A stretch of DNA of 64,000 nt from a virus. This document shows, one piece after another, positions 8,984 to 58,755 of the stretch. The stretch lies in IMG/VR virus record IMGVR_UViG_3300037804_000399, positions 1-64,000 of that record. One strand, written 5' to 3'. How positions within the stretch are numbered: position 1 is the stretch's first letter; each line of letters begins with the position of its first letter. The notes beneath the pieces are model-generated. The model did no database searches. It had not been told where the DNA came from and saw nothing but the letters and a program-made list of their open reading frames with translations. The position numbers and the translations under genes are program-made.

Positions 8984-10783
8984 ATGTCGAACAATAAGAA
9001 ATTTTACATGGGCAATAAGCGATTAAAAGCTGAAGGCTTTGAAGAGACTATCGGTAAGGTCGAATTTAAAAAAAGAGTCCGTGAAATAAAAAGATGCAAA
9101 GAAGATATTTTATACTTTGCTGAAAAATACTTCTTCATTGTTTCTCCTGATAAGGGAAAACATAGAATACAAATGTTCGATAAACAAAAGCAACTAGTTA
9201 AATCTTTTCAAGAATTTGACAGAGTTGTTACTCTTGCGGCAAGACAAACAGGAAAGACAACAGCATATACAGTTTATCTGTGTTGGCTAATGATCTTTTT
9301 CAAAGACAAACGTATTCTCGTTTGTGGTAATAAACAATCAACCTCAAAAGAAATCGTAAGCAGGGTTAAACTTGCTTTTGAACTTCTTCCACTATGGCTT
9401 AAACCTGCAACAACAGAGTGGGCTGGACTCAGTTTTGCTTTGAACAACGGTTCCACTATAAAAGGTGTTGCTACATCTGCATCATCTGCTAGAGGTGACT
9501 CAATAAACGTTCTAGTTATCGATGAAGCTGCTTTCATACCGCCAAATATAATGGACGAGTTTTGGCAATCAGTATATCCTACTATATCAGCTCCTGGTGG
9601 AAACACTCAAGTTATAATGGTTTCAACTCCAAACGGTACTGGTAACCTATTTTATGAAACTTATGAGAGCGCTCGACTAGGATTAGAAGGTGGATGGCAT
9701 CTCGAACAAATGAATTGGGACGATAGACCTGGAAGAGATGCTGCTTGGAAAGATAAAACGATTGCATCATTTAACGGTGACATGCAAAAATGGGCTCAGG
9801 AATTTGGCAATAAATTTATAGGGTCATCTCAAACTTTATTCAAACCAACAGCTATTGAATATTTTAAATCGTTTATTATATCTGATAAATGGTTCGAGCC
9901 TACAATTATAGATTTGCCAAAACTTCCAGGCGAACATATTAATATCAAACAGTGGTTTAAACCGCACCCTTCACGGACTTATGCAATTGGAGCGGATGTT
10001 GCTGATGGAGTAGGTGGCGATAGTTCAATAGCATTAGTATTTGATATAACAGAATTGTATAATATAAAACAGGTAGCATCTTTTGCTAGTAATGTGGTTT
10101 CGCCAACAGAGTTTGCATATGTATTGGTTAAGATCGGAGTAATGTATAACAATGCTCATATTTTATGCGAAAGTAATAACATGGGAAGATCTACTCTAGA
10201 TTTCATATATCAGATTTATGAATATGAATGGATAGTAAACTTCGGAGGAAAGAGAAATCTTGGCATACTTTCAAATCATATGATAAAAATAAAGACTTGT
10301 TTATTCTCAAGAAGTCTAACTACTGCTGCAAACGTAAAAATAGAATTATATGATAAGAACGCTGTTGCTGAATTAGAGTACTTTGAAAAGGTAGTTGGAG
10401 GAAATACATACAAAGCTATTCAAGGAAAATATGATGACTACACTTTATCATTCATTTGGCTTATGTTTATCTTTCAACCTGAAATAGTAGACAACTATTA
10501 CGATGTTAGAGATTGGCAAACAACTACATTAGGATACTCACTTCCAAAAGTTATCAGAAACTTTAGTGTATATGGAAGCGGAAACATGTTTAACGATGCT
10601 TTGTCCGCAGCCATCAAAGATCCTGATAAAGTATTTGAAGGATTAGGCGATGGAACCATTTCAGAAGAAGCTGTAGGATACTTTGCAGGAGAAACAGACG
10701 GAGGTGATGATGTCATGAGTAGTAGAGGTTTTTCAGCGGATTCATATAGTAATGAAGATACCAGTTGGCTATTTAACACATAA
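8984..10783 (+). CDS. gp17: Terminase large subunit
   Basis: YMGN..LK, Walker A ARQTGKT, Walker B VLVIDEAAF, STPNG, QEF, nuclease GADVADG and YDD. Confidence 0.95.
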   Translation: MSNNKKFYMGNKRLKAEGFEETIGKVEFKKRVREIKRCKEDILYFAEKYFFIVSPDKGKHRIQMFDKQKQLVKSFQEFDRVVTLAARQTGKTTAYTVYLCWLMIFFKDKRILVCGNKQSTSKEIVSRVKLAFELLPLWLKPATTEWAGLSFALNNGSTIKGVATSASSARGDSINVLVIDEAAFIPPNIMDEFWQSVYPTISAPGGNTQVIMVSTPNGTGNLFYETYESARLGLEGGWHLEQMNWDDRPGRDAAWKDKTIASFNGDMQKWAQEFGNKFIGSSQTLFKPTAIEYFKSFIISDKWFEPTIIDLPKLPGEHINIKQWFKPHPSRTYAIGADVADGVGGDSSIALVFDITELYNIKQVASFASNVVSPTEFAYVLVKIGVMYNNAHILCESNNMGRSTLDFIYQIYEYEWIVNFGGKRNLGILSNHMIKIKTCLFSRSLTTAANVKIELYDKNAVAELEYFEKVVGGNTYKAIQGKYDDYTLSFIWLMFIFQPEIVDNYYDVRDWQTTTLGYSLPKVIRNFSVYGSGNMFNDALSAAIKDPDKVFEGLGDGTISEEAVGYFAGETDGGDDVMSSRGFSADSYSNEDTSWLFNT

Positions 10784-40725: not shown

Positions 40726-40733
40726 TATAAATA
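40726..40733 (+). promoter_or_regulatory. T4-type late promoter TATAAATA
   Basis: Exact consensus upstream of gp6. Confidence 0.75.
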
Positions 40734-40767: not shown

Positions 40768-43236
40768 ATGAGTACTGACATTTCCATCTCAAACAAAAAT
40801 GAATATTTGCGGTTCTCTGCAAGTTCTATAAAAGAGCTCCTTCAACAAAAACTTTCAGAAGGAACTAATTTTACTGACCAAGCATTTGCTGGATCTGTTA
40901 TTGATATAATGTTAGACTCTTTATCACAGATGTACGCAGCTCAAATGTTCTATCTTAATAACTCTGCAGCTGAAAGTATCTTTACTGATTCTTCATTGTA
41001 TGAAAACATGAACCGTATCGTAAAAATGCTTGCGTATAACCCAAGAGGTTACATAACATCATCATTACCAGTAAGACTTACAACTACAGATAAGTATTCT
41101 GATGATGCTAGAAACGTTTTACATAGATACACAACTGTTACAACAAATTTAAAAACATCAAGTTTTAAAACTGAACCAATTACCTATTCTTGTGCATTTG
41201 ATCTTGATAGAGGATTTAGTTTCAGTACTGAATCTCCAAATGAATTAGTATTGTATAACGGAAGCTGGAATCTTTATCCGCAAAAGACAGTATCTCTAGG
41301 AGTTCCTTTCGAGACTGTAATCCTTAACAAGTTAGATATAAGTGAAGATTCTCAAAAAAGAGATTTTATTTCACATGATCATATTGATGTATTTGTTCAG
41401 ACATCCCCTACTAGCTTAACTTACGAAAAATATTCTACAGTTAACACTTTATTTGAAAGTGGATCACAAGATCTACATGTAGAAGTTAGATTAAATGAAA
41501 ACAAAAATTACCAACTTAGGTTTGGTGATGGTGTTAAGGGAAGACGTATTCCTAAGAACTGTGACATTAGAGTAATTTATCTCAAATCAAACGGTGCAGA
41601 AGGAGTTGTTGGACCAGAAGCTTTCCCAACAGCAGAACCTCTAACCTTAAAATGGGGCGTGACCGGACTTACTATTTCTGAATTAAGAAATATGTTAGAC
41701 GTGTCTGATAGAGACTATAATTTAATCAACAGTGCAACTCATTTAGGAGCTACAAGTATTGTTACAGATACCTCTGCGACAGAATCTTCTGAATTTGAAA
41801 CAGTTGCTGACATCAGAACTAATGCTCCAAACTGGTTCCGTATGGGAAGTCGTTTAATCACTTATACTGATTTTGAACAATTTATTAAAGGAACGTTCTC
41901 ACAGGTTCGTGATGTAACAGTTCATAATAACTGGGACTTCTTAATCGAATTTGAAGAGTGGCTTAGAACATATGATAAACTATCAATGGCAATACGTCAA
42001 AGCTTTTATAAGTTCGCAGATGCTGCTGATGCAAATAACATTTACATTTGGATTAAGAACTTAACAAATATTGATAACAAACGCGCAATTGAAGAAGCTT
42101 GTAATAGAATTAAAAGTCTTACAGCTGAGTTAATCGTTCTTGATCCTGTTCACACTTTCTATTCTCCTTTAATCACAAAACATAATTTAGATTATGTTAC
42201 TTCTGATACATTCTATGATGAACTTGAAGCTGACGATCAAAACATTTTTGATCAAGACCAATCTGATAAGATTGATCAAGTGGAAGATCGTTTCGGATAC
42301 ATCTTTATCGATAAAGATGAACAGATAACAGAAATCGTTGATGATGTAGAAATAACTAGAAGTAGAACCCAAGCAGAGATGGCAGCACTGACAGATTTTA
42401 TTCCTATAAGATCTTTAGATACGTACGCTCCTATCCAAACAGGAAACGAAGCAAGTGATAATGCTGCTAACTTAAATATTCGTAGAGATATAAAAATGTT
42501 TATATTCTCAAACTATGAACCAAAACGTGACAAGTTAATTGCCGGAAACGATTCTTGGGAACGTGATTTGAAGACAAGAATATTAAACGGTCAGGCTGAT
42601 ATCGAAAGCGAAGTTATTGAAATTTCAGAACAAGTTTACACATACGGAGTTTACTTTCCAACCTCAACGGTTTGGGAACATTCACAACAAGTAAATATTG
42701 CAAAGATTGAAGTACTAAGAAATATGTTTGTAACTTTTGATCAAGTTGACGCAGCGCTCAAGCAACAGTACGCTGATCGTGTAAATAATTACAGAAATGG
42801 ATTATATATGGATGCTGTGAATAGTTCGTACCTTGAAATTACAAGAAACAAACATTCACTTATTACTACAGAGCGAATTAGAAAACAAGTTGGAGATATT
42901 TTAATCAACTATTTTCGGGTCGTAAATTCCAATCTAGGAATGAAAATTGATATTGATCAGATACACACTAACATTCTTGCTATAGATGGTGTAAATAAGG
43001 TTCGTACGATAACGTTGGAACAAGGCGATCAAGGAAAAATTAGAAAGAATGAATTTGACGGAATTTCCTTCGGAGCATGGACAGACGAATTAGTCGACAA
43101 GAGAGATAAACGAAACGTATCAGCAAATGAAAAGATAAAAGATTTTCAGTTTCCTGTTTTATATTTCGCAACTCAGATAGATAATATCATTAGAGTAGAA
43201 CAAGACGACTACCTTGTAACAGGTGTTGAATACTAA
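40768..43236 (+). CDS. gp6: Baseplate wedge gp6
   Basis: FTD..F.GS....LD, E.....Y.P, L.FGDG..G..P, YL.S.G..G, E....IR.NAP, RL.T..D. Confidence 0.88.
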   Translation: MSTDISISNKNEYLRFSASSIKELLQQKLSEGTNFTDQAFAGSVIDIMLDSLSQMYAAQMFYLNNSAAESIFTDSSLYENMNRIVKMLAYNPRGYITSSLPVRLTTTDKYSDDARNVLHRYTTVTTNLKTSSFKTEPITYSCAFDLDRGFSFSTESPNELVLYNGSWNLYPQKTVSLGVPFETVILNKLDISEDSQKRDFISHDHIDVFVQTSPTSLTYEKYSTVNTLFESGSQDLHVEVRLNENKNYQLRFGDGVKGRRIPKNCDIRVIYLKSNGAEGVVGPEAFPTAEPLTLKWGVTGLTISELRNMLDVSDRDYNLINSATHLGATSIVTDTSATESSEFETVADIRTNAPNWFRMGSRLITYTDFEQFIKGTFSQVRDVTVHNNWDFLIEFEEWLRTYDKLSMAIRQSFYKFADAADANNIYIWIKNLTNIDNKRAIEEACNRIKSLTAELIVLDPVHTFYSPLITKHNLDYVTSDTFYDELEADDQNIFDQDQSDKIDQVEDRFGYIFIDKDEQITEIVDDVEITRSRTQAEMAALTDFIPIRSLDTYAPIQTGNEASDNAANLNIRRDIKMFIFSNYEPKRDKLIAGNDSWERDLKTRILNGQADIESEVIEISEQVYTYGVYFPTSTVWEHSQQVNIAKIEVLRNMFVTFDQVDAALKQQYADRVNNYRNGLYMDAVNSSYLEITRNKHSLITTERIRKQVGDILINYFRVVNSNLGMKIDIDQIHTNILAIDGVNKVRTITLEQGDQGKIRKNEFDGISFGAWTDELVDKRDKRNVSANEKIKDFQFPVLYFATQIDNIIRVEQDDYLVTGVEY

Positions 43237-46200: not shown

Positions 46201-49200
46201 ACATGCATGCTTCATCAGGATATTTAGATACTGAACTTTATGATATCCATAAGAAATACATTGGTGTTTCAAAATCAAGATTGTTAGAAGGTGCTATTAC
46301 AAAAGATCCTAGTACTGGAACATGGGACTTTGAAAATTTTGTTAGAGAAGTTGCTCACGAAGGATCACACCCTGCAGCAAACTATAAAAACTCACTTTAC
46401 CCAACTATTCAACACCAACCATTCCTTTGGAACTTGGTAGAAAAACTTGCGGTTGTTTTCCCTTCAGTATTGTTTACTGTATTAGTAGGAGAAGGTGAAG
46501 AAGTTTTAAACCGTTTAAGTCAAATAGATGAATTTGGTAACTTGATTGACAGTTGGAAACATACTCACCAAGAGTTTATGTCATACCAAACTAGATATGA
46601 AGCTTCTACTAATACAGGAATTGCTTCAATAAGCGATCCGCAGATTGATAGAGATGGTCCATTTAATCCAGATGCGTTAAAAGAATTAATTAAATCAAAT
46701 GCTGAACCTCTTTCAGATAAGAGTTCGTTCGGAAATGATTTTGTTGAAATCTTTAGAAATGATTATTACGGATACGCATCTGTGTTCTCAGATTTTTATT
46801 TCCTACAAGCTGAAAAAGCAAAGATTCAATTTCACTTGGATCGCATTGACGGTGTAAAAGAATTTGATATTGTTGGAATACCAACAGGAGATGAAGATTT
46901 ATTTGGATTGAGAAATCAAAAGATCTTTCAATTTGCTGCTGATCAAAATGAATATCACTATACCCTTTACAAAGATGTAAACATCAAAGATTGCCCTGGA
47001 CAGCTTTGGGTTCGTTATAATAATTTCCCATTCTCATTTCCAGTTGCTGTCGACCAAACAGATCTTATCACATATGATGATACATTAGTAAGTATTAATC
47101 AATTAGAAACTAGAGATGTTTCACTCGTAAACGTTATGAATAACTGTTACGATTTTGGAATACAGCAAAACATTATTTGGGCACTTGGAGATAATCACGG
47201 CGAACTAACATGGACGGTTTTAAATGTTGGATTTACTCTTAATGATGAAGTAAGAACATCTCTTTATACAATCATTAATAACGCAACACCTTATGTATTT
47301 TTAGAGAATGAACATTATGTTGGTACTCACTTTAATGGTGATACTATTATTCTTGTAATTTATAATGAAGAAACAAATAAATTTACAAATAAATATATTG
47401 ATCTTATCGAATTAGTTTACTTACCTGACAGAACATATTCTGTAGGTGATGATATGAGATTCTTTAAAGATTCTGATGAAGCGCTTATCCAAGGACATGC
47501 TCTTTCAAATACTACAGTAAGAATTTGTCGTCCAGTTGATCTACCAACCACTCTTCCAGCTACAACTACTACTGAAGGACCAATTATTGTTGTTCCTCCT
47601 GCGACTACTCTTGGACCGACTACATTAGCACCTCCTACCACATTAGCACCAACAACTACAGTGGGACCAACAACTACAGTGGGACCAACAACTACAACAA
47701 CTATTTGTCCATCATTAAAAGAAGATCTATTTGTAAGATGGCAGTATCAATCTTCATATGTTCACGAACAACCTACTCCGAGAGATATAATTGTAAAGGT
47801 ATATCGTGACCCACTAAGTACATTTACTGGAGCATTTTCAGTAGCTTATAATACATTAGATGAAGGTGATCCAGGTTCGCAGTGGCCAAGAACTCAATTT
47901 CCAGATACAGGCCCTTCAGCTGAGAAAATAAAAGATTACATACCTAAAGCAGATTTCATTTATTTTGCAGAAGGTCAAATGGAAGCGGAAGTAAAAATTA
48001 CTATTCTTCCAAGTGCTCAACCAGAAAATGCAGAATATTTCTATATTAGAATGACTGATTTCTTATTCAACGATTGTTGTGAAGTTAATTCAAATGTGGT
48101 TGAACAGAATCCGCATATGATTTTAATAACAGATAGATGTTGCCCTTGTCCTGAAACTACTTCTACTACAAGTACATCTACTTCAACATCTACTTCAACA
48201 AGTACTTCAACAAGTACTTCAACATCTACAAGTACTTCAACATCTACTTCAACAAGTACAAGTACTTCAACAAGTACTTCAACAAGTACTTCAACAAGTA
48301 CTTCAACAAGTACTTCAACAAGTACTTCAACATCTACAAGTACTTCAACAAGTACTTCTACATCTACAAGTACATCTACTTCTACATCTACAAGTACATC
48401 TACTTCTACTTCAACAAGTACATCTACTTCTACATCTACTTCTACATCTACAAGTACATCTACATCTACTTCAACAAGTACATCTACTTCTACATCTACT
48501 TCTACATCTACAAGTACATCTACATCTACTTCAACAAGTACATCTACATCTACTTCTACTTCAACAAGTACATCTACTTCTACTTCAACAAGTACATCTA
48601 CAAGTACATCTACTTCAACAAGTACTTCTACATCAACAAGTACATCTACTTCAACAAGTACCACAACACTAGCACCTACGACAAGTACCACAACAAGTAC
48701 CTCTACTTCTACTACAAGTACATCAACATCTACTTCAACAAGTACATCAACAAGTACAAGTACTTCAACAAGTACATCTACTTCAACATCTACTTCAACA
48801 AGTACTTCAACAAGTACATCTACTTCAACATCTACTTCAACATCTACTTCAACAAGTACAAGTACTTCAACAAGTACCACAACACTAGCACCTACGACAA
48901 GTACAACTAGTACATCTACAACTAGTACATCTTCAACAAGTACATCTACTACGTTGCCACCAGTATTAAGTTGGAAGTATGTTCCATGTCCGACTACAAC
49001 AAGTACTTCGACAAGTACTTCAACATCTACAAGTACAACTACACTTGCACCTACAACAAGTACTTCGACTTCGACTTCAACAAGTACTTCAACAAGTACT
49101 TCAACAAGTACTTCAACAAGTACTTCGACAAGTACAAGTACTTCAACATCTACAACTACACTTGCACCTACAACAAGTACTTCGACTTCAACAAGTACTT

Positions 49201-49925
49201 CGACAACTACATTAGCTCCTACAACTAGTACGACTACGACTACAACGACTGGTGTACCTACAACAACAACTACTCCGGCTCCAATATTAAGCTATGAGTA
49301 TGAAGAATGTTTTCCAGTTACAACAACTACTGCGGCTCCAACAACGACTCCGACTCCAACCACTAGTACAACATCTGCGCCGATGGGAGCAGTTGGAACT
49401 CCGAACGGTGATCCGACTATGTTGATAACTCTAAACTGGACTCCAGGTGACGCTACTAAAAACTATCTAGGAGAAAGCTGGACTCCTGGAGAGACAAAAA
49501 TAGCTTATTCTTCTGATCCATATAGAAAAGGAGTTTACACTGGCGGAGCAACTATCGAATCAGAATTCTGGGGAATTAATGCAGCTGGTGTGAACAACGA
49601 TAAATTTGTATTAGCAGCATTCATTTCTGCTGCAGCGGGATATAGACATTATGATAAAGTTCACTATGCTGCTGAAAATGCAAAGATTACAATAGGATCA
49701 AATTACACTTTTAATTCTGCACAAGCAAGTTCAAAAATATTATCCTTTACTCCTGAAGGAAATGCTTTTCCATTTGGAGGTCCGTGGGGTACAGCAATAA
49801 ATACTGTCAGTAGTGGAATATTAGTAAATATTGGCCAAGGATATATTCAACCTCTTCAGTTTTCTGGAATGGTTGCTCTAACAAACGGATTAACAATTTC
49901 ATGGTCACAAGGAACTGGGTGGTAA
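43248..49925 (+). CDS. Giant baseplate-associated structural protein with Calx-beta-like domain and Thr/Ser mucin-like stalk
   Basis: Follows gp6 and is acidic. V.V.R.....F.V.Y.T......DY.....I.F..GQ....V.I.I....E..EYF.I is Calx-beta-like (~47710-48140); TS tracts follow, then a C-terminal domain shared with downstream genes. Confidence 0.7.
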   Translation: MVDKKGSDFNQGELLKKYINNPEWIRTYETLWNTLETSTQLVGAEIHEKTRNYVQNLRDIDLCETKALRSIVTELQVDNMEIVDALPKEIQRLVDIFSINPSLLLTDGMVFEDYMETFEAEVQAIYAKYFPTQFFLRQFEFDDAEVKWNNQPIEEFVDRYACKVVNIINKYKEESESDIDELDITNEMLFDSSEPRFYDSSDVDFVGTLEGVIQNTIADRLYDQFSTDIETGIYRQSISEDGDNPVFGDVFGFTWIVDDENFMKVQIKANIETIFKAFNDSVILGESYYVPFQVFTVTQLSITSGLILPEHVSKTYTRSKVILNGVATFIDDEDISEWMALIVRRFEDSSFFIDDAESKIESLEYVQFRQKFPPTVTEYINLVDPAATEIDESFVWDIIGLDPLNEERDVLYHECYAGKTMLDLFIIAQFTDTLYKHWLEESYQSLVENILDQNFEFGTDADYKYRGVYQIIGDDAKTELDALAPSQFEKDHYLITLTNEVEQFFVYNGLEWLEQCPFRDLDRITEAAAESLLDTCKRIRLQRNNLKEIAQRHAIIGTNRAVESVFTDYVLRSFTQLEDWEMTTVTDDRNWRLVGAITLQDYEQTAAGLYVDDDIKIGTYKRVLVANQYTDYVVFRSKQTSTLVATEIGLSDEFEFNTDSVYNLNDILPSLGTLDSKVKVIEYWDTTEYFNIEPTETKYLTGPINKRISMKDVVNITDDGDLEIAETGELVEFIEGQSKYQIFNQYLDKGNPQYWNDNKETNYSTSRENSINFSDEEVSERKRFMGSYSPIDLVFSAGLSRIETPGPLRSSDIQAGDYYDVNFTVPDFANTAYTAAQLAAVDANATNGLDAMDLIQQEAYYTNLYSSLDDQEIFDDGAQWILSYKRGDAEKAEGLTFDDAKDWDPENVLHQTYILKRARTKAIRFWGQGADINFMSFKFDNWFKISLEEWLINNQDKHMTQFWNDVGMKGDWEADIRPILDQYWNMHASSGYLDTELYDIHKKYIGVSKSRLLEGAITKDPSTGTWDFENFVREVAHEGSHPAANYKNSLYPTIQHQPFLWNLVEKLAVVFPSVLFTVLVGEGEEVLNRLSQIDEFGNLIDSWKHTHQEFMSYQTRYEASTNTGIASISDPQIDRDGPFNPDALKELIKSNAEPLSDKSSFGNDFVEIFRNDYYGYASVFSDFYFLQAEKAKIQFHLDRIDGVKEFDIVGIPTGDEDLFGLRNQKIFQFAADQNEYHYTLYKDVNIKDCPGQLWVRYNNFPFSFPVAVDQTDLITYDDTLVSINQLETRDVSLVNVMNNCYDFGIQQNIIWALGDNHGELTWTVLNVGFTLNDEVRTSLYTIINNATPYVFLENEHYVGTHFNGDTIILVIYNEETNKFTNKYIDLIELVYLPDRTYSVGDDMRFFKDSDEALIQGHALSNTTVRICRPVDLPTTLPATTTTEGPIIVVPPATTLGPTTLAPPTTLAPTTTVGPTTTVGPTTTTTICPSLKEDLFVRWQYQSSYVHEQPTPRDIIVKVYRDPLSTFTGAFSVAYNTLDEGDPGSQWPRTQFPDTGPSAEKIKDYIPKADFIYFAEGQMEAEVKITILPSAQPENAEYFYIRMTDFLFNDCCEVNSNVVEQNPHMILITDRCCPCPETTSTTSTSTSTSTSTSTSTSTSTSTSTSTSTSTSTSTSTSTSTSTSTSTSTSTSTSTSTSTSTSTSTSTSTSTSTSTSTSTSTSTSTSTSTSTSTSTSTSTSTSTSTSTSTSTSTSTSTSTSTSTSTSTSTSTSTSTSTSTSTSTSTSTSTSTSTSTSTSTSTSTSTSTTTLAPTTSTTTSTSTSTTSTSTSTSTSTSTSTSTSTSTSTSTSTSTSTSTSTSTSTSTSTSTSTSTSTSTSTTTLAPTTSTTSTSTTSTSSTSTSTTLPPVLSWKYVPCPTTTSTSTSTSTSTSTTTLAPTTSTSTSTSTSTSTSTSTSTSTSTSTSTSTSTSTTTLAPTTSTSTSTSTSTTTLAPTTSTTTTTTTGVPTTTTTPAPILSYEYEECFPVTTTTAAPTTTPTPTTSTTSAPMGAVGTPNGDPTMLITLNWTPGDATKNYLGESWTPGETKIAYSSDPYRKGVYTGGATIESEFWGINAAGVNNDKFVLAAFISAAAGYRHYDKVHYAAENAKITIGSNYTFNSAQASSKILSFTPEGNAFPFGGPWGTAINTVSSGILVNIGQGYIQPLQFSGMVALTNGLTISWSQGTGW
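48156..49370 (+). repeat. Low-complexity tandem repeat encoding (TS)n and TTTLAPTT
   Basis: Built from the 6-nt units ACAAGT/ACTTCA/ACATCT/ACTTCT; includes an exact 60-bp duplication 48421-48480 = 48481-48540. Confidence 0.95.
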
Positions 49926-49926
49926 A

Positions 49927-50850
49927 ATGGCAGATTTATATTTAGATGCAGATTACGGAAACTTTATAAGACATTTAGGAATATGCTACATGTTAGAAGA
50001 TCCTGACTTTGTAACCCCTCCGGACTTTGCAGGTCCACCAGACGAGGTTGGATTTACTGATTGTGATGATTGTGAATCAACTCCTATTACAACAACCACT
50101 CTCGGACCTACAACAAGTACTACACCAGCACCATTGTCAATTGTAGGACCAGTTAACGGCGATGGAACAATGCTAATTAAATTAGAATGGACGTCAACTG
50201 CAGTTGCAAGTGTTTCTATAGCCAGTCCTTCTCAAATTACTACATCTGCTGTTCACAATTACGAAACAGGAGATTCGATTACTATTAGTGGAACAGATAC
50301 TACGCCGTCAATAAACGGAACACATATAGTAACAAAAATAGATGCTAACAACTTTACTATTCCAGTCAATGTTACTGCAGTAGTTTCTGGTGTAGGAGCA
50401 ACTGAATTTGCAACTGTTCCATTTGTAGGAGGTAGTTGGACAAACGGCGAAACTAAAAAAGTTTATTCACAGGCAGGTGGGTATGTATATGAAACTAGTT
50501 ATTATCCTTCAATTACCTCATACTCTGGATCAGCTGAAAGATGGGTAAGAGTGGTAAGCGGAGACACATTTAGAGTAGGAGGATTCGAAAAGCAATTAGG
50601 AACTTTCGCGGGTAAAATCAGTGACGGAAATTTAATAGTCAAAGGATTGCATGGAGCAAATTTGTATATGGATAACTATACTAATGGATCATATGGATTT
50701 GCTGGCACTCCTACAAGTGATAATATAGCAAGTAAAGCACTGGCTGCTGCTGGTATCGTGAGAGGATTCCCATGTGGAGCTCCTCAAAAATCATCTTCAT
50801 TCGTTACTACGCATGATATAACTATAACATGGTCTCCACAAGGATGGTAA
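49927..50850 (+). CDS. Adhesin/fibre module protein (Cys N-domain, short T/P linker, shared tip domain)
   Basis: MADLYLDADYG..IRH..ICY...F.GPPDE.GF.DCDDCE; G..NGDGTMLI.L.W; WTNGETK.VY; ITWSPQGW. Confidence 0.6.
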   Translation: MADLYLDADYGNFIRHLGICYMLEDPDFVTPPDFAGPPDEVGFTDCDDCESTPITTTTLGPTTSTTPAPLSIVGPVNGDGTMLIKLEWTSTAVASVSIASPSQITTSAVHNYETGDSITISGTDTTPSINGTHIVTKIDANNFTIPVNVTAVVSGVGATEFATVPFVGGSWTNGETKKVYSQAGGYVYETSYYPSITSYSGSAERWVRVVSGDTFRVGGFEKQLGTFAGKISDGNLIVKGLHGANLYMDNYTNGSYGFAGTPTSDNIASKALAAAGIVRGFPCGAPQKSSSFVTTHDITITWSPQGW

Positions 50851-50851
50851 T

Positions 50852-51385
50852 ATGGCAGATTTAAAATTAGATGCGGATTACGGAAATGTTGTAAGACATA
50901 ATGCAATCTGTTATATACTTGATAGAGTAGAGGCTGGCGTTGCTGACTTTGCAGGTCCACCAGAAGGAATTAATTTTGATGATTGTGACGAATGTCACAA
51001 TGCACCATTTCCACCTATGTCACTTGTGACATTAGAGCAAACAGGCGTTCTCGTTGAAGGCGACCCACTTGGTCAGCTAGTAGGTAATTTTGTTATAACT
51101 GGAGGAAAGTTTCCGTTTACCATTGCACTCATAGTCGGAGTTGATGATGATGACAATGCACATTATCAGATTAACGGCAATGATCTCGAATTAAGTAACA
51201 CTGGAGGAACCGTAACACCTTCAAGTTCTATTAGAGTGGAAGTAACAGATGCTCTAGGTAATAAATTAGAATCAGTTATAACTGTAATTGTTGCTCCTAT
51301 CTTAGGTACAAAAACTATTACATTAACACCAGGTGATAACTTATTTGATTATGATTTTAATGAACCAGTAGGAACATTAAACTAA
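50852..51385 (+). CDS. Adhesin/fibre module protein (Cys N-domain plus cadherin-like repeat)
   Basis: MADLKLDADYG..VRH..ICY...DDCDEC; EGDP.G.LVG...GG..PF..AL..G..D.DN.HYQING. Confidence 0.6.
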   Translation: MADLKLDADYGNVVRHNAICYILDRVEAGVADFAGPPEGINFDDCDECHNAPFPPMSLVTLEQTGVLVEGDPLGQLVGNFVITGGKFPFTIALIVGVDDDDNAHYQINGNDLELSNTGGTVTPSSSIRVEVTDALGNKLESVITVIVAPILGTKTITLTPGDNLFDYDFNEPVGTLN

Positions 51386-51414
51386 TGAATACAATTAATA
51401 AAGGAATGGTATAA

Positions 51415-52395
51415 ATGGCTGATGTATATAGTATAGCACCAGATCCTCAAGGTTTAGGTAGAGATGTTGATAATTTAAAATTTAGCATAGAGATTCCAAA
51501 TACATTAAATGTATCTGTAGCGGGACCTTATCCAGCCGGCACTTATAAGGTTACGGTAAAAGTAGTTGATGATGTTACTATGGAATTTGGGTATGGATTT
51601 TTCAATGTAGTTATATATGCTTCCATTACAGATTTTATACTTAATCAAACAAATACTCCTAACGAAGGAGATCCAATCAGTACCTTAATAGGTGACTTAC
51701 AAGTTACTGGAGGAACCGCCCCTTTTGTTTTTGCACTAATAGCTGGATTTGGAGACGGAGACAATCCCCATTATCAAATAAATCTTGCGGATTTAGAACT
51801 AAGTGGTACTGGTGGATCTACAGAACCTACAGATTCAATTTACGCAAGAGTGACTGATGCAAATGGTGACGAAGCATTTGACAACTTTATTATAAACTTA
51901 GATGCTCCTGGTGCTCCATTAGCAACAATAGGAACTCCAAATGCTGACCCTACATTGTTTATTAAAGTAGAATCTGCAAATGCTGGAGGTACTGCATTAT
52001 TTCCTTATAATTTCCTAGATGAAGATTTTACTGACGGTGAAACAAAAGAAGTATATGGAACTTATGTTAATGTAGCTCTATTAAAATCTTGGACTATTGG
52101 AGCTGGTGATGATAGCGTCACAATAGCTGATGATAAAGTAGTATCACCAGCATCATATACTGTTATAACTGCAAACTCCGCTAGTGAGAATCTTCGCCGA
52201 GGAAAAGACAACGGTGATTTTGTTTGGGGTGGATATTTTGCTCCAGATGCTAGTGTAAATGTAGTTAGTACTACCATCGTAGCTGCCACTCCTAATGATG
52301 TATTAGATGCTAGCAATTATGGCGAAGTTGTATTTGACATTTCGGGTGGCGGGAATCATGTTAAAATAACAATAAGCGAAGGAAATGGTTGGTAA
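51415..52395 (+). CDS. Adhesin/fibre module protein (cadherin-like repeats plus tip domain)
   Basis: Cadherin repeat paralogous to that of 50852; GTPNADPT, DGETKEVY, ITISEGNGW. Confidence 0.6.
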   Translation: MADVYSIAPDPQGLGRDVDNLKFSIEIPNTLNVSVAGPYPAGTYKVTVKVVDDVTMEFGYGFFNVVIYASITDFILNQTNTPNEGDPISTLIGDLQVTGGTAPFVFALIAGFGDGDNPHYQINLADLELSGTGGSTEPTDSIYARVTDANGDEAFDNFIINLDAPGAPLATIGTPNADPTLFIKVESANAGGTALFPYNFLDEDFTDGETKEVYGTYVNVALLKSWTIGAGDDSVTIADDKVVSPASYTVITANSASENLRRGKDNGDFVWGGYFAPDASVNVVSTTIVAATPNDVLDASNYGEVVFDISGGGNHVKITISEGNGW

Positions 52396-52470
52396 TCTGC
52401 CTTTGTGATGTAACAAACATTCCTCAATACTAGAATATAATTAAATTGTAAATGTATTGAGGAATAAAAA

Positions 52471-53601
52471 ATGATTATAGTAAGTGGATGCCCTAGATCT
52501 GGAACTAGTTTAACTATGGATATTCTTCGTAAGGCGACTGGCGAAGAGAACATGATTGCTTCAAAATTTCCACAGAAAAGAGAGTTAGAAATCACAAGAG
52601 GGGAGGACGAATCAGATAGTGATTTCCAAATACGAAATTATTTGTTTCAAAAATTCAAACGTCCAGATAGAGATGATGATTATACTGACATGAATCCAAA
52701 CGGATTTTGGGAATGTAAATTTTCTGTATTAGGAGTCGGAGCTGAATACGGGTCAAGACTATTCAATTATCACTCTGCAAAGTTTACCGAAACACTATTA
52801 GACACTGGTAAAGATAAAATTTGTAAAATCGTAAGTCAAGGTTTAATGTCATCCGATGTAAGATATATTGATAAAGTAATTTATTTAATAAGACATCCTA
52901 GAAACGTTGCAAAATCTCATGAAAGATTAAAGAGAGGGTTTGATGTTAAAGTAAATGGCAAGAAGCAAAATATATTTGAAGGATTGACCATACACACTCC
53001 TGAGATGTATATAGGAGTTACCATTCAAGCTTGTAGATGGATTTTAGAAAATCCAACCGTGCCAATATTATTTGTTAACTTTGATGATTTGTTATCTAAC
53101 CCAACTGAAACAATTGACACTATTGCAGAGTTTGTCGAGTTCGGAGATTTTGAAAAATCTAAAACTATTGTAGATCCAGTGTTGAATAGAAGTAAAATTC
53201 AAGACATCGAACATGTGCTTTGGGAAGATGCTGAATTTGTTTATGAACAGTTTAATAAACAAAACTATCAGGAAATATTAGATTACTTCGAAGATCCTAC
53301 AAGAGCATATAGAAAATACACAGATAAATTTATTTGCACTAGAACAAATGATGAAGTAACCAATCGTGATTGTCAGAGTTGTTTATCGAGTGACGTAGTC
53401 AAATACAATAAAAAAGTATTAGCCAATCACAAACAGATTGATTATTTAAAAGAACCTTGTATGTATGAATGCGGAAAGAATGTTGATACTGATTCATATA
53501 AAACCATTGAAGAAAGTATTAAAAACCATACTTGGGATAATGGAAAGAAAATAATAGACGGAAAACTGGATGTTATTCCTAGTGGAAATACTTTAGGATA
53601 A
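52471..53601 (+). CDS. Sulfotransferase (PAPS-dependent) with C-terminal Cys domain
   Basis: 5'-PSB IIVSGCPRSGTSL, NP.GFWE, 3'-PB YLIRHP..VA.S, FDDLL.NP...I..I.EF. Confidence 0.85.
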   Translation: MIIVSGCPRSGTSLTMDILRKATGEENMIASKFPQKRELEITRGEDESDSDFQIRNYLFQKFKRPDRDDDYTDMNPNGFWECKFSVLGVGAEYGSRLFNYHSAKFTETLLDTGKDKICKIVSQGLMSSDVRYIDKVIYLIRHPRNVAKSHERLKRGFDVKVNGKKQNIFEGLTIHTPEMYIGVTIQACRWILENPTVPILFVNFDDLLSNPTETIDTIAEFVEFGDFEKSKTIVDPVLNRSKIQDIEHVLWEDAEFVYEQFNKQNYQEILDYFEDPTRAYRKYTDKFICTRTNDEVTNRDCQSCLSSDVVKYNKKVLANHKQIDYLKEPCMYECGKNVDTDSYKTIEESIKNHTWDNGKKIIDGKLDVIPSGNTLG

Positions 53602-53716
53602 TATTTTTAGGATATGGTTAATATATTCAAAGAATAATAAGTAAATAAGGATACTGTAACAATATTTTTGGAATACTTATGACTCGAGAATATATTAACC
53701 ACATGGACAAATTATA

Positions 53717-56700
53717 ATGGCAAATATTTATTTAGATACTGATACTCACGGAGAGTATATAAAACATAATGATATTTGTTACAAGCGTGTAGGTCCGAGT
53801 ACCACTGAGCCAGCAACTGTATTTGGAGCTCCTGATGAGACTGGATTTGCAGATTGTGACGATTGTGAGTTTGATCCCCCTGTATTCTTCGGAGAGTTTG
53901 ATTATGAAACTGAAGAAGAAGGAAGTCTCACTGCATTTACTGCTACCGCTACCGATACTGACACATATGAAATAATAGAACAACGAGATGAAGCCTTTTT
54001 TAACATAAATCCTGTAACTGGAGAAATAGTATGGAAAACCGCTCCCGATTTTGATGACGCTAGAGATGAAAATTACGACAACAATTATGTTCTTAGAATA
54101 CGAGCAACTGGACCAGGTGGACAAACTTTTCAATTTTATTCTGTTACAGTAACCAATATTTCAGAATTACCTGAATTTTATGGACCATCTACAAGGGAAA
54201 GATTTGATGGTTATGATGAAGGAATGACAATTACAGCACACGATACAACTTCTTTTTCTATGATAGGCGGAGAAGACATTTCCAAATTTTCGTTAGATCC
54301 CACAACGGGCGTTTTAACATTTCTAGCAATACCTGATTTTGCTTCCCCTGGTGATTTTGATGCAGATAATGAATATCATGTAACTGTAAGAGCAACGGGA
54401 CCTGGTGGGTTTGCTGACAGAAACTTTACGATATTTATAAGTGAATTTCCAACGGCTAGATGTACTGAATACGGAGCTGATGATATATTAGGAAATTTAC
54501 CAACTAACACACATCCAACGATAGACTATAAAATAGAAGGAATGAATTTAGCTGGTGATAAATGGGTTGCTCAATTTGCGAGACTGATGTGTGATAGTAA
54601 TGGAGTACAGGCTGGAAGATGGTATTCAGTAAAAGCAAATAGAGGTGCAAGCGGGACCCTAGTTTTCGACACTAACTATATAGAAACAAACTTACGACAC
54701 CGCTGGACTACAGTAGCTGTTTCTAGTTTAGGATTTGGAGACGAAGACGTTGGACAATTTTACTTCGATATAGACAAAGATTCTGCAACCATTTTTATGG
54801 TGGTAAATTATGGTCTAATTAGACAAGGAATACGTTTCTCTTCTACTTGGAGATCTAATGATTACAAGGATGTCTTTAATCTAGATGGAAATTGGCAACA
54901 CAGTTTTGATTCTTTAGGAACAAGCGCAACATTAATTTCATCAACATGGGATAACTACAATTCTGGAGTGTCTGCTTTAGGAGTACAAGCACCGACAGGA
55001 GATTGGACGAATACTGCAACACCAACTTACATTGAAGATCAAAAGATAACAGATGCTATGTTCGGAGAAATTGTATTTGACATAGGCTCATCGGGATTTG
55101 CCAGTCCGATAAGAGTAAAACTTTCAACTAGACGTGGTACAGGAATAAATCCTGATTGGAATGATGTTCCAGCTCCTGTTGCTCCTGAAATAATTGGACC
55201 AACAAAATACGTAGTAAATGATGGAGTAATGCCAGCATTTCAAGTGAATGTAAAGGATAGAACATTTGAACCCACTTATACAATATCCGGTGGAGCCGAT
55301 GCTGCTCTATTTACTGTTGACGCTAGAGGATTTGTAAATTTTAAAGTAGCTACTAATTATTCAGCACCTACTGATGCTGGCGCAAATAACAAATATGATC
55401 TTCAAATTACAGCTACAAATGATCAAGGAGCTGATTCAGAAACTTATGAAATCACTGTTATAGGAGTATCTGGTGTAGTTGGTCCGATACAAACTCTTAA
55501 TTTTTCTGGTTCGGGAACAACTGATCCAACTAGTTTAGACAATACAGTATTTGTAAAGTATGTTGGTGGTGGTGGAGAAGGTGTTTCTGCTTTTAATAAA
55601 ACGTGGAACTCGGGTCAGTTAGGACATGTATTTGTTGATTATACAGATGCTAGTCCAAATGGAGAATCCATTGCTATTTCAATTGGTGACTCTGTATTGA
55701 ACATTTCTGATTTAAGTGATACTGCAATAATAGAATTTACAGTACGTGCTGGGTTGACTTTGGACTTAGAAAAGATTTTAGCTCCTTTAGCTGATAATGA
55801 TACTTCAGTGGGAGTTGAATCTCACACTTTAGATTTTACATATAATGATTCTATTTCAGATCAGTTTGGTAGAGTTACATTTACAAACGGAGAAGTGTGG
55901 GAATTTTTAAGAGGAAGTAATTGGCCTGCTCCGACAGCGCCAGTATTCACAGGAGCCACAGCTCATAGTCTTACAACAGGATATTCCAATCCGTTCACTG
56001 CCACTGCAAATCCAAATACTTATGATCTAAATTTTGCAATAACAGGTGGAGCAGATGCAGCTGTGTTTAATATCACATATGACGGCACAGTTACTTTTAT
56101 AGTTCCTCCTGATTTTTCAGCACCAATAGATGCGGGTGCAAATAATGTTTATGATTTGGAAATCACTGCTACTAATGAAACAGGATCCACTGTACAAGCC
56201 TTTACTGTGACTGTGAATGATTTTACATTACCAGTTTTTAATGGTCCTTTTGCATTGAACGTAGATGAAGAACAAACAGATATTTTGACAGTTGATGTTC
56301 AATTTAATGATTATCCTCCTACTTTTTCAATAGTTAGTGGAGTGGATGAAGCTCTATTTGCGGTTGATAATATAACTGGTGTGGTTACATTTATAGCAGC
56401 TCCTGACTTTTTAACTCCGTTAGATGTTGGTGCTAATAATGTTTATGATTTTGAAGTTACAGCAACTAATCCTGCAGGTGATCAGACTCAAGCTTATGTT
56501 ATAACAGTTGATCAATTACCATTGCCTGTTTTTACAGGAACGTTTATTCTTGAAATATCGGAAGGGTCAGCAGCTTTTACAGCAGTAGCTACTAACACTC
56601 CAACGTTTGCTATAACTGGAGGATTGGATCAATCCTTATTTGATATTGTACCAGCTACTGGAGTTGTAACATTCTCACCAGCAGTATTATTTGCTTCACC

Positions 56701-57154
56701 TACTGACAATGGTGCTAACAATGTATATGATGTTGAAATAACAGCAACTAATTTAGGCGGTTCAGTTGCTCAAGCATACGCGATAACTATTAGAGATCCA
56801 GCTTTAGTTCAAGAGATAGGAATAGAAATCGCAGGAGATCCACATGCTGAGATTACTTGGTCTTGGTCTGACGCTGCTGCAACAAAAGATTGGTTAGGTG
56901 AGACTTGGTCCAACGGAGAAACTAAACTAGTACATGATGAATTTGCAGGAGCAAATGCTTCAGGATTTTACAGAGGTAATTATTCAGTAGGAAGCATTTA
57001 TGTTGGCGGCTCGGTAAATGCAACATCTGGAAATATATTTGCTTATGGATCATCAATTGGATTTATGTCTGGTTATGGTAATTTAAATACAGGAGTTGTG
57101 TTAGTATCTGGTACAAATACAATGACATTATTGATGAAAGCATCATTAACTTAA
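53717..57154 (+). CDS. Large cadherin-repeat adhesin/fibre protein
   Basis: Cys N-domain as in 49927; about six GG.D...F.I....G..TF...PDF..P.D.GANN.YD....AT cadherin repeats interspersed with tip-type domains. Confidence 0.75.
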   Translation: MANIYLDTDTHGEYIKHNDICYKRVGPSTTEPATVFGAPDETGFADCDDCEFDPPVFFGEFDYETEEEGSLTAFTATATDTDTYEIIEQRDEAFFNINPVTGEIVWKTAPDFDDARDENYDNNYVLRIRATGPGGQTFQFYSVTVTNISELPEFYGPSTRERFDGYDEGMTITAHDTTSFSMIGGEDISKFSLDPTTGVLTFLAIPDFASPGDFDADNEYHVTVRATGPGGFADRNFTIFISEFPTARCTEYGADDILGNLPTNTHPTIDYKIEGMNLAGDKWVAQFARLMCDSNGVQAGRWYSVKANRGASGTLVFDTNYIETNLRHRWTTVAVSSLGFGDEDVGQFYFDIDKDSATIFMVVNYGLIRQGIRFSSTWRSNDYKDVFNLDGNWQHSFDSLGTSATLISSTWDNYNSGVSALGVQAPTGDWTNTATPTYIEDQKITDAMFGEIVFDIGSSGFASPIRVKLSTRRGTGINPDWNDVPAPVAPEIIGPTKYVVNDGVMPAFQVNVKDRTFEPTYTISGGADAALFTVDARGFVNFKVATNYSAPTDAGANNKYDLQITATNDQGADSETYEITVIGVSGVVGPIQTLNFSGSGTTDPTSLDNTVFVKYVGGGGEGVSAFNKTWNSGQLGHVFVDYTDASPNGESIAISIGDSVLNISDLSDTAIIEFTVRAGLTLDLEKILAPLADNDTSVGVESHTLDFTYNDSISDQFGRVTFTNGEVWEFLRGSNWPAPTAPVFTGATAHSLTTGYSNPFTATANPNTYDLNFAITGGADAAVFNITYDGTVTFIVPPDFSAPIDAGANNVYDLEITATNETGSTVQAFTVTVNDFTLPVFNGPFALNVDEEQTDILTVDVQFNDYPPTFSIVSGVDEALFAVDNITGVVTFIAAPDFLTPLDVGANNVYDFEVTATNPAGDQTQAYVITVDQLPLPVFTGTFILEISEGSAAFTAVATNTPTFAITGGLDQSLFDIVPATGVVTFSPAVLFASPTDNGANNVYDVEITATNLGGSVAQAYAITIRDPALVQEIGIEIAGDPHAEITWSWSDAAATKDWLGETWSNGETKLVHDEFAGANASGFYRGNYSVGSIYVGGSVNATSGNIFAYGSSIGFMSGYGNLNTGVVLVSGTNTMTLLMKASLT

Positions 57155-57166
57155 TAGGAAAATGAA

Positions 57167-58057
57167 ATGATTGTAGTAACAGGAACTCCTCGTAGTGGAA
57201 CTTCATTAGCAATGTTATCATTGGCAAAGTTAATTGGCAAAGATAAAATAGTAGGAGATAAGTTCCCTCAGAAAAAGAAAGCTCAAAATGCTGCCGAACG
57301 ATATGTATATGAATTGAAGAATAATAATAACTTGAACCCTACAGGGTTTTGGGAAAATTTAAAGTATATATCCAATGGATTTTCATATTCATCAGAAAAT
57401 GAAAAAGAGTTTTATAAACTATCGACATCCTCTGATCATGCTGTTAAAATAATTGCTACTGGGTTACCAAAAACAGAACCAAAGTATATTGACAAGTTAG
57501 TCATCTGTTTGAGAGATCCTCTTGAAACTGCAACATCACAAACCGGACTTGTTGGACAAATTGGTCCAAGTGAAGCTGACCCTAAAAAACAAATCTTTGA
57601 TTTAATAACGATTGCAAAATATATGATAGTAAATCCAAAGGTTGATTACTTTCTGCTGAATTATTCAGATCATAAGATAAATGCAAAATACACTATGGAA
57701 CAATTAAGTGCATTTGTAGAAGTACCTTATAAGGAAAGCATTTACAAGGCCACTGGAAAGAAAACAATGAAGCGTCCCGATACAAAAATTTGGGACGAAG
57801 CATTTTACATTTACAATTTAATGATACAGGAAAATTTTCAAGCAGTGTGTGATTATTCCAATGATGTTACAACTGAGCTATCAAGACAAACAAAATCTTG
57901 GTTTTGTCCAAAGTTTGATTTTTTAACTAATGATGATCGATGTAATACGTGTAGAAGCAATAGCAAGGTAAGAGAAAACTTTATTAAAAAAGCAAATCAC
58001 AATAAACATGATCATGAAAACGAACCATGTTACTTGGATCTATTAGAACAGGAGTAG
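57167..58057 (+). CDS. Sulfotransferase paralogue with C-terminal Cys domain
   Basis: IVVTGTPRSGTSL, KFPQK, NPTGFWE, CLRDP.E.A.S. Confidence 0.85.
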   Translation: MIVVTGTPRSGTSLAMLSLAKLIGKDKIVGDKFPQKKKAQNAAERYVYELKNNNNLNPTGFWENLKYISNGFSYSSENEKEFYKLSTSSDHAVKIIATGLPKTEPKYIDKLVICLRDPLETATSQTGLVGQIGPSEADPKKQIFDLITIAKYMIVNPKVDYFLLNYSDHKINAKYTMEQLSAFVEVPYKESIYKATGKKTMKRPDTKIWDEAFYIYNLMIQENFQAVCDYSNDVTTELSRQTKSWFCPKFDFLTNDDRCNTCRSNSKVRENFIKKANHNKHDHENEPCYLDLLEQE

Positions 58058-58060
58058 TAA

Positions 58061-58558
58061 ATGAATTGGATTTACACATACAAAGCGCAAATATTACAAA
58101 AACTTCCACAGTTTGATTCAAATTATGATGAGATAGAAAAGAAGATTCAGAAAGCTGACTGTCCTAGATGTGTAAAGACTCGATATGAATTAAAACTGAA
58201 AAGACAAGTTTCTCAATCTATGAAACCTGGAATGTTTCCTCCACAACTCGAACAACTTCTAGCAGCTTACAATCCTTCATATGGACAAAAGAATAAAATC
58301 AAAACAGTAAGTCTCAAACCAGAAGAGATTTCAATACTCGATGAACGAAAAGGATGTATTGATTGCGTTAGAAAACATATGAGCCAGGCAATAATTTTAC
58401 TTCGTGAATGTAATCAAGGGTATGGTACAGACGAATTTGAGCACAAGTGGTTAGCTGTAGGTCATTTAGCCGAAGCAGCTGATGAAGCGTTGCAAATAAA
58501 TCCAGCATTGAGTATGAAGATTAGAGATCTCAGATTAATGATCATGGAACAAGAATGA
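58061..58558 (+). CDS. Hypothetical protein with two CxxC motifs
   Basis: CPRC, C.DC.RKH, GHL.EA.DE. Confidence 0.55.
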   Translation: MNWIYTYKAQILQKLPQFDSNYDEIEKKIQKADCPRCVKTRYELKLKRQVSQSMKPGMFPPQLEQLLAAYNPSYGQKNKIKTVSLKPEEISILDERKGCIDCVRKHMSQAIILLRECNQGYGTDEFEHKWLAVGHLAEAADEALQINPALSMKIRDLRLMIMEQE

Positions 58559-58755
58559 ATACATCTCCTGAAGTAATAAGAATTGCAATACAAATATTAA
58601 GATCTACATGTCAATTTAAACAAATAGGTCCTTATAACCAACCTATAATTGAAATTCAAAACACGTTAAAAACAATTCACGGCAACGATCTAACAGTATC
58701 AGAAGAAACTTTAACTCAACTAAAAGACATTAGTGACGCTATTGGTAATAAATAA
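58555..58755 (+). CDS. Small hypothetical protein
   Basis: ATGA-coupled ORF. Confidence 0.5.
   Translation: MNTSPEVIRIAIQILRSTCQFKQIGPYNQPIIEIQNTLKTIHGNDLTVSEETLTQLKDISDAIGNK

Follow-up and report, generated by a model that had tools for sequence, protein, structure and literature searches.

What task do two sulfotransferase genes have among the fibre and adhesin genes of a large phage? This question is raised by the uncultured virus recorded in IMG/VR as IMGVR_UViG_3300037804_000399. The stretch analysed, referred to here as the window, is the first 64 kb of its 90,831-bp linear contig, which CheckV rates as about 35% complete. In the window, a gene for a 2225-aa protein with a long, nearly pure Ser/Thr tract (termed here the stalk) is followed by fibre and adhesin genes, among which two paralogous sulfotransferases, ST1 and ST2, are encoded. 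An earlier note on the window had suggested that the phage builds a sulfated, mucin-like appendage. In related phages, genes of the same sulfotransferase family are repeatedly paired with Ser/Thr-rich genes, which makes it probable that mucin-like appendages of the phages themselves are sulfated. Judged from gene content and gene linkage, it is on balance probable, if narrowly so, that ST1 and ST2, fed by 3'-phosphoadenosine 5'-phosphosulfate (PAPS) made by the phage, act on such proteins.

Two Sulfotransferases of a Phage Family

By their motifs, profile matches and predicted fold, ST1 and ST2 can be assigned to the superfamily of PAPS-dependent sulfotransferases. The motifs pointed out in the earlier note are present, namely the 5'-phosphosulfate-binding (5'-PSB) motif as GCPRSGTS in ST1 and GTPRSGTS in ST2, and the 3'-phosphate-binding (3'-PB) motif as RHPRxVAKS and RDPLETATS, respectively. 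HMMER aligned the 3'-PB stretch to the same motif of SULT1A3. ST1 scored above the Pfam cut-offs of PF00685 (Sulfotransfer_1; 32.7 bits vs. 22) and PF13469 (Sulfotransfer_3; 28.7 vs. 27). ST2 alone has no Pfam match; it aligns with ST1 over its full length (28% identity, E 2e-37), reaches 292 bits against the family profile and occupies a long branch of the tree.

An alignment of 23 family sequences revealed that R9, S10, G11, T12 and S13 of the 5'-PSB motif are at least 90% conserved, and that the segments MNPNGFWE and KIVSQGL and four C-terminal Cys residues are invariant or nearly so; R141, P143 and S149 of the 3'-PB motif are invariant in alignment A1 of the family. This conservation bears on the possibility that the sulfotransferases are inactive or structural and that the Ser/Thr tract is a flexible, possibly unmodified spacer, which is considered highly improbable. 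ST2 has indeed diverged strongly and lacks the conserved HTPEMY segment. Nevertheless, the residues that bind PAPS do not vary among more than 20 diverse members and are retained in ST2 together with the four Cys, and the linkage of the family to adenosine 5'-phosphosulfate (APS) kinase, described below, would be sensible only for an active PAPS user.

The AlphaFold2 (AF2) model of ST1 (predicted local distance difference test, pLDDT, 82) matches PAPS sulfotransferases with Z 9–11.5 over aa 1–265, and among the structures listed (50 entries, Z at least 9.1) all have the sulfotransferase fold. The CurM sulfotransferase (4gbm) gave Z 11.5 with a root-mean-square deviation of 4.3 over 199 aligned residues, TPST2 (3ap2) gave Z 11.3, and Stf9 (2z6v), Teg12, StaL and heparan-sulfate enzymes lie within about 2 Z of the best match. 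Because these scores are so close, the acceptor class is not revealed by the fold. Compared with the known superfamily, the phage enzymes share the 5'-PSB and 3'-PB motifs and the α/β fold, whereas they differ by at most 19% identity to solved members, by MNPNGFWE and KIVSQGL, and by an added C-terminal domain of about 100 aa carrying the four Cys (Cys4 domain). When this domain was modelled alone (AF2 pLDDT 90) and compared with 48,161 PDB chains, no structural match was obtained (best Z 2.0); it may serve as a zinc-binding module for substrate recognition. The PSB strand stands at the very start of ST1, and an N-terminal signal peptide or membrane anchor is absent. Cytoplasmic activity is therefore expected of the enzymes, in the compartment in which PAPS is formed and virion proteins take up their fold.

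More than 300 metagenomic homologs of ST1 were found at 39–61% identity, nearly all of them unnamed. Motif-guided scans recovered 30 IMG/VR loci of the family, many on contigs of 130–476 kb, and 126 metagenome loci, of which 80 were kept. A locus search of IMG/VR with a single sequence returned none, whereas the alignment-based search did find loci. Among 185,579 prokaryotic species genomes (one per species) the family occurs twice, both times on short contigs of metagenome-assembled genomes, and a tblastn search with ST1 gave no match in 50,697 deposited phage genomes. The family is essentially restricted to phages and hardly ever present in cellular genomes.

Linkage to Ser/Thr-Rich Genes

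Gene neighbourhoods were compared in 12 phage records obtained in full, using open reading frames (ORFs) of at least 100 aa; a gene was called S/T-rich if a 40-aa window of its product held at least 65% Ser+Thr. Among the records with any S/T-rich gene, the sulfotransferase directly adjoins one, at a distance of at most 440 bp, in seven of eight; on the contig studied here, the distance is 2.5 kb. A wider set comprised 67 non-redundant sulfotransferase clusters (80% identity), each with a flanking gene. The immediate neighbour is S/T-rich at 14 of these 67 loci, and an S/T-rich gene lies within three genes at 16. In terms of genes, 16/112 neighbours are S/T-rich compared with 13/1381 genes located more than 10 kb away in the 12 fully fetched records (odds ratio 17.5, Fisher p 1e-11). 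This co-occurrence had been proposed in the earlier note as a check of its idea, and the outcome was positive. The difference persisted when only genes of at least 250 aa were counted (14/48 neighbours vs. 10/492 distant genes, p 3e-10).

The S/T-positive loci fall at about eight separate places on the sulfotransferase tree, as read from a quick-method tree whose topology is qualitative only. After masking, 17 S/T-rich neighbours resolved into 10 unrelated homology groups, indicating that the link is to composition and not to one inherited gene pair.

The nature of the neighbours also bears on whether the enzymes could be tyrosine sulfotransferases resembling TPST or RaxST, with the adhesin motif MADLYLDADYGN or the Tyr residues of a SYEYEEC spacer in the stalk as targets. 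TPST1 and TPST2 (Z 10.6–11.3) score level with the best structural match (Z 11.5), the Arg of the 5'-PSB motif (PRSGTS) is as in Sulfotransfer_3, which ST1 also matches, and three adhesins have in common an acidic, Tyr-containing N-terminus. However, Z gaps below 1 are likewise ties with CurM, Stf9, Teg12 and heparan-sulfate sulfotransferases, so that the fold does not discriminate; no TPST was found among the sequence matches at E<=1; and what returns from lineage to lineage is a richness in Ser/Thr rather than in Tyr, which makes up 1–7% of the S/T-rich neighbours. Tyrosine sulfation is accordingly regarded as very unlikely.

A Phage-Encoded Source of PAPS

The statement of the earlier note that neither a glycosyltransferase nor a PAPS synthase is visible holds for the window. 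Elsewhere on the contig an APS kinase (CysC) is encoded, above the cut-offs of TIGR00455 (172 bits vs. 138.7) and PF01583 (166 bits vs. 21.1), and thus the phage can supply PAPS. The scan beyond the window that had been suggested therefore succeeded for cysC, but not for glycosyltransferases (GT1, GT2, GT2_3 and GT8), ATP sulfurylase or CysD. Neither of the last two was found in any of the five cysC-bearing records (this 90.8-kb contig, G000, and G001, G006, G009 and G013), indicating that APS would come from the host. Only G006 among these five has a gene of the PAPS_reduct family.

Of all Pfam families, APS kinase occurs most often among the 141 genes flanking family members, with five matches. 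It directly adjoins the sulfotransferase in L010, L013, L122, L184 and L017, and lies two genes off in L033. On the 7-kb metagenome contig L122 (2941–5761), the genes for APS kinase, the sulfotransferase and a 326-aa, Ser-rich protein classed as S/T-rich follow one another. Adenylylsulfate kinase has been described in large freshwater phages as an auxiliary gene of "assimilatory sulfate reduction" (bioRxiv 10.1101/2020.02.13.942896). Both cases concern large phages with this kinase, whereas in the present case a genetic link joins cysC to a sulfotransferase, suggesting that PAPS serves as donor of sulfate and not as a step of sulfur assimilation.

Alternatively, the sulfotransferases and APS kinase could form a pathway for hypermodification of DNA or nucleotides. 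Nucleotide modification systems based on glycosyltransferases or sulfotransferases have been reported in phages (PMC10829341, a survey), the APS kinase of this contig sits amid GroEL-like, topoisomerase II and dUTPase/dCTP-deaminase (DCD)-like genes, and DNA pol III alpha is encoded beside some family members. Nevertheless, both sulfotransferases here lie amid fibre and adhesin genes and not amid genes of nucleotide metabolism, the recurrent partners of the family are S/T-rich proteins, APS kinase and glycosyltransferases, and the Cys4 domain is unlike any known DNA-binding fold, so this pathway is judged to have very little probability.

The Ser/Thr Tract of the Stalk

The claim that the 2225-aa protein carries roughly 400 almost pure Thr/Ser residues was borne out, as the main tract spans 389 aa and is 89% Thr/Ser. 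It contains 345 Ser/Thr residues, or 359 when Pro is included, and has the length and composition of mucin-type proline/threonine/serine domains. Mostly strict TS alternation is broken by TTTLAPTT units and by two short Cys-containing spacers. Together with two short Thr/Pro-rich tracts, 455 residues of the stalk are involved. Five codons (ACA, ACT, AGT, TCT and TCA) are mixed in the DNA of the tract, and the matches of Tandem Repeats Finder amount to 65–75%, which argues that the tract is not a pure microsatellite and is maintained at the protein level. An antisense ORF of 279 aa lying wholly within the tract (48041–48880, minus strand) was taken as a by-product of the codon repeat and not as a gene.

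An exhaustive search with the N-terminal 1200 aa of the stalk gave 158 remote metagenomic relatives of 845–2863 aa. Since none of 150 such relatives carries an S/T tract, the tract is lineage-specific. PHROG comparison of six of these remote relatives was uninformative. The N-terminal part had no match in PDB, PHROG, cultured phages or a protein collection of 5.8e9 clusters, and no similarity of aa 1–1451 to T4 gp7 was detected in PHROG, Pfam, PDB or cultured phages; its sole gp7-like feature is the position after a gp6-like gene. A Calx-beta domain at aa 1490–1627 was considered and found no support among PDB sequences. The full stalk is not present in the collection of 5.8e9 clusters or in one of 1.84e9 representatives, where its neighbours ST1 and orf165 are present; identical copies of these two in the protein collections occur on a second contig, of 257 kb. 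A filter or a differing gene call might account for the absence of the stalk.

Glycosyltransferases and the Possible Acceptor

Glycosyltransferase genes (GT9, GT2-TPR, GT1 and GT8) are found near the sulfotransferase in at least seven lineages; they are rare among the two genes on either side and recurrent within 10 kb. GT9-like genes lie at most 10 kb from it in L011, L012, L125, L131 and L150, and GT2 genes in L024. In L119 and in L005, which of the IMG/VR relatives is the closest, a GT2-TPR gene stands two genes downstream of the sulfotransferase; such a gene also occurs at the L138 locus. In the most extensive arrangement, on a 159-kb contig (L011; G007:C1:51130–64576), the gene for a 1279-aa protein with 57% Ser/Thr is followed by the sulfotransferase and a GT9 gene, then by GT1 and GT2 genes and further along by Sulfotransfer_2 and GT8-like genes, the whole occupying at most 14 kb. 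This cluster brings predicted scaffold, glycan-building and sulfating genes together in one place, and linkage between glycosyltransferases and putative acceptor genes is present in the relatives G007, G001 and G020.

In the proposed course of events, the phage APS kinase would convert host APS to PAPS late in infection. The cytoplasmic, PAPS-dependent ST1 and ST2 would then sulfate hydroxyl-rich appendage proteins, chiefly the 389-residue (TS)n tract, either on O-linked sugars that glycosyltransferases from other parts of the genome had attached or directly on the hydroxyls of Ser and Thr. A polyanionic stalk that resembles mucin and bears the downstream adhesins on the virion would result. 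Sulfation of O-glycans, with which the G007, G001 and G020 clusters are compatible, is put forward tentatively, as possible but short of probable. Direct O-sulfation, by which naked (TS)n or poly-Ser tracts would be polysulfated with PAPS from phage CysC, is unlikely; it would suit the loci without a nearby glycosyltransferase, such as the L122 trio and this contig. A mixed or other acceptor would account for what is left of this proposal.

Weighing the Proposal

Several points weigh against sulfation of the phage's own appendages. In the earlier note, sulfotransferases occurring without TS-rich genes were said to speak against the idea, and this applies in part, as 53 of 67 loci (79%) have no S/T-rich neighbour, set against the 14 that do. 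In G001, G008, G010 and G025, which are 62–91% complete and possess the sulfotransferase, no S/T-rich gene was found at the threshold used. The contexts of the family are mixed and include terminase, portal, DNA pol III alpha, ClpP and peptide deformylase genes. The Fisher test ignores shared ancestry, and one record, G003, contributes 10 of the 13 S/T-rich genes of the background. Fibre modules could owe their S/T richness to mechanical demands, in which case adjacency would reflect a shared module only. Gene position alone suggests that the stalk is a virion component with stalk-like geometry, and its N-terminus is without an annotated relative. GT1, GT2, GT2_3 and GT8 genes are missing from the 90.8-kb contig, which represents about 35% of the genome. 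For the catalytic base, the invariant E81 in MNPNGFWE is no more than a candidate.

Some of these points would fit an acceptor other than a phage protein. The enzymes could act on host envelope glycans or lipid-linked precursors, leading to surface remodelling or superinfection exclusion, or on a small metabolite, and their position would then reflect the gathering of accessory genes in a variable host-recognition module. The 79% of loci without an S/T-rich neighbour and the heterogeneous contexts are in line with such a role, and G007-like clusters of GT9, GT2, GT1, GT8 and Sulfotransfer_2 genes might just as well produce a sulfated glycan that is free or lipid-linked. In published surveys, phage sulfotransferases figure as auxiliary genes without a known role (PMC10580990, PMC8290583). 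Nevertheless, a 17-fold adjacency to S/T-rich genes that involves 10 unrelated scaffolds is not predicted by a passive model of a variable region; neither a signal peptide nor a membrane anchor is present in the enzymes; and cellular genomes, in which relatives of envelope-glycan sulfotransferases would be expected, almost lack the family. A non-protein acceptor is consequently viewed as rather unlikely. The sulfated appendage of the earlier note is partly supported, by gene linkage, APS kinase and the glycosyltransferase clusters, whereas the 53 loci lacking an S/T-rich neighbour tell against it.

Relation to Known Systems and Significance

Ser/Thr tracts serve as scaffolds for O-modification in mucins, in bacterial serine-rich repeat adhesins and in heptosylated autotransporters (TibC/Aah, GT9-like), where they keep an adhesive domain at a distance from the particle or cell. 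Like these, the phages combine long Ser/Thr tracts with GT9-like genes that recur near the sulfotransferase. The known scaffolds are cellular and glycosylated, and mucins are sulfated on their glycans in the Golgi. In the literature searched, no bacterial or viral system was found in which a Ser/Thr scaffold is sulfated in the cytoplasm. Searches on phage sulfotransferases together with tail fibres or jumbo phages, and on mucin-like phage proteins, gave nothing on virion sulfation.

Closer to the present case, virions of the mycobacteriophages Che8, Corndog and Myrna are reportedly O-glycosylated, as Freeman and colleagues are said to have described in 2023. In both cases, cytoplasmic phage transferases are proposed to act on hydroxyl-rich virion proteins of the phage itself, and the enzyme genes lie near structural genes. 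Mycobacteriophage glycosyltransferases act on capsid and tail-tube proteins, at short tails of the C-terminus, whereas here sulfotransferases with a PAPS supply would act on a 389-residue tract in a giant baseplate-linked protein. The sulfotransferase locus would represent a further form of phage-encoded virion decoration, backed by gene linkage across lineages.

To our knowledge, no protein Ser/Thr sulfotransferase has been identified so far. If direct sulfation took place, ST1 and ST2 would be the first enzymes assigned to direct protein Ser/Thr O-sulfation, and baseplate appendages would carry a polyanionic brush akin to a synthetic polymer. Ser/Thr O-sulfation is described as under-detected in a 2026 review, in the consulted passages of which no responsible enzyme is named. 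In previous studies, phage sulfotransferases and cysC have been treated as auxiliary metabolic genes of unclear role or as part of sulfur assimilation (PMC10580990, PMC8290583, bioRxiv 10.1101/2020.02.13.942896). The linkage observed here gives them a concrete, testable job, namely sulfate decoration of the phage's own mucin-like appendages. If this is true, sulfation joins the short list of post-translational modifications of virions encoded by phages, and cysC in large phages would be reread as donor supply, not as sulfur assimilation. The family would then provide a sulfotransferase that is compact, soluble and cytoplasmic and has a substrate-side domain of a new kind. Such an enzyme could prove to be the Ser/Thr protein sulfotransferase that has long been missing, or could be used to produce sulfated glycoproteins in bacteria. 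For the phage, sulfation would affect sticking to sulfated marine polysaccharides, mucus and host surfaces.

Genomic Context and Other Features of the Locus

The genome is estimated at roughly 260 kb, with a G+C content of about 33%. Its DNA polymerase is of the T4-type family B and shares about 28% identity at best with those of cultured phages. SbcCD, primase, topoisomerase II, a GroEL-like chaperonin and other genes usual in large myoviruses are also encoded, and the source is a deep-branching, large, uncultured, T4-like phage. Coordinates of the features are summarized in Table 1.

Table 1. Features of the sulfotransferase locus and the APS kinase gene of the same contig
Feature	Position	Strand	Evidence or remark
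T4-type late-promoter-like motif TATAAATA	40726..40733	+	35 nt upstream of gp6-like gene
gp6-like baseplate wedge gene	40768..43236	+	phrog_219 E 5.9e-28
Stalk protein, 2225 aa	43248..49925	+	gp7 position, 12 nt past gp6-like gene
First short Thr/Pro-rich tract, 33 aa	47616..47714	+	Composition
Main (TS)n tract, residues 1628-2016, 389 aa	48129..49295	+	193 Thr, 152 Ser, 14 Pro
Second short Thr/Pro-rich tract, 33 aa	49305..49403	+	Composition
C-terminal module of stalk, ending WSQGTGW	49404..49922	+	Sequence comparison
FibA, 307 aa	49927..50850	+	Shared N-terminal motif, short T-rich linker, shared C-terminal module
N-terminal MADLYLDADYGN..DCDDCE motif, three copies	49927-50090; 50852-51010; 53717-53880		Sequence comparison
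C-terminal module, FibA and FibC copies	50128-50847; 51910-52392		
FibB, 177 aa	50852..51385	+	Shared N-terminal motif; middle domain common with FibC
FibC, 326 aa	51415..52395	+	Middle domain common with FibB; shared C-terminal module
ST1, 376 aa	52471..53601	+	Pfam; PAPS-type fold aa 1-265 and C-terminal Cys4 domain
Cys4 domain (ST1 aa 260-359; ST2)	53248-53547; 57878-58054	+	Common to whole sulfotransferase family
Adhesin, 1145 aa	53717..57154	+	PF00028 E 7.6e-15; cadherin-like repeats, shared N-terminal motif
ST2, 296 aa	57167..58057	+	BLASTP E 2e-37; divergent ST1 paralog
orf165, small Cys-containing protein (CPRC...CIDC)	58061..58558	+	Directly after ST2
APS kinase (CysC), outside window	G000:C1:83011-83508 (L004:7011-7508)		TIGR00455, PF01583

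The block is bordered by the DNA polymerase gene upstream and by SbcCD, primase and topoisomerase genes downstream. The sulfotransferase genes are co-oriented and closely packed with the fibre and adhesin genes, downstream of the gp6-like gene, which also matched cyanophage baseplate wedge genes in tblastn at about 22% identity. The earlier note had placed them inside a baseplate block. This was supported by the gp6-like gene upstream, but no other gene is recognisable as a baseplate gene, so the label is owed to that gene and to gene order. In G010, the sulfotransferase likewise stands between a gp6-like gene and a tail-fibre gene. As the motif TATAAATA is not enriched across the window (11 found vs. 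9.2 expected), only its position is suggestive.

All ORFs behind the earlier description of four adhesin-like genes after the stalk, with two paralogous sulfotransferases among them, were confirmed. FibA has a weak match to the short tail fibre phrog_4527 (E 0.0016). FibA, FibB and the cadherin-like adhesin have in common an N-terminal motif of some 55 aa, MADLYLDADYGN...FAGPPDE..F.DCD(D/E)C(E/H), which may serve to dock the adhesins to the baseplate or the stalk. With the acidic surroundings of its Tyr, this N-terminus resembles Tyr-sulfation sites. A C-terminal module ending in WSxGNGW is common to the stalk, FibA and FibC and is partly present in the cadherin-like adhesin; a search among PDB sequences gave nothing significant for it. 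The same module recurs two genes upstream of the sulfotransferase in L005 (8820–9470) and L119 (8528–9433).

Among the smaller neighbours, orf165 gave no family lead in Pfam, NCBIfam, PHROG or Atlas and has five unnamed homologs in a large protein collection; homologs of it adjoin the sulfotransferase or APS kinase in L010 (2771–3448) and L026 (10963–11649). Small proteins resembling DUF6171 (PF19668) account for three of the 141 flanking genes, and the L005 protein at 9519–9935 reached 25.1 bits against this family, just below the 27-bit cut-off. At the end of the contig (G000:C1:87166–90831; L004:11166–14829), a protein resembling DUF2201 metallopeptidases and von Willebrand factor A (VWA) domains is encoded, with a MoxR-like AAA_5 ATPase two ORFs downstream; this pair is unrelated to the sulfotransferase locus.

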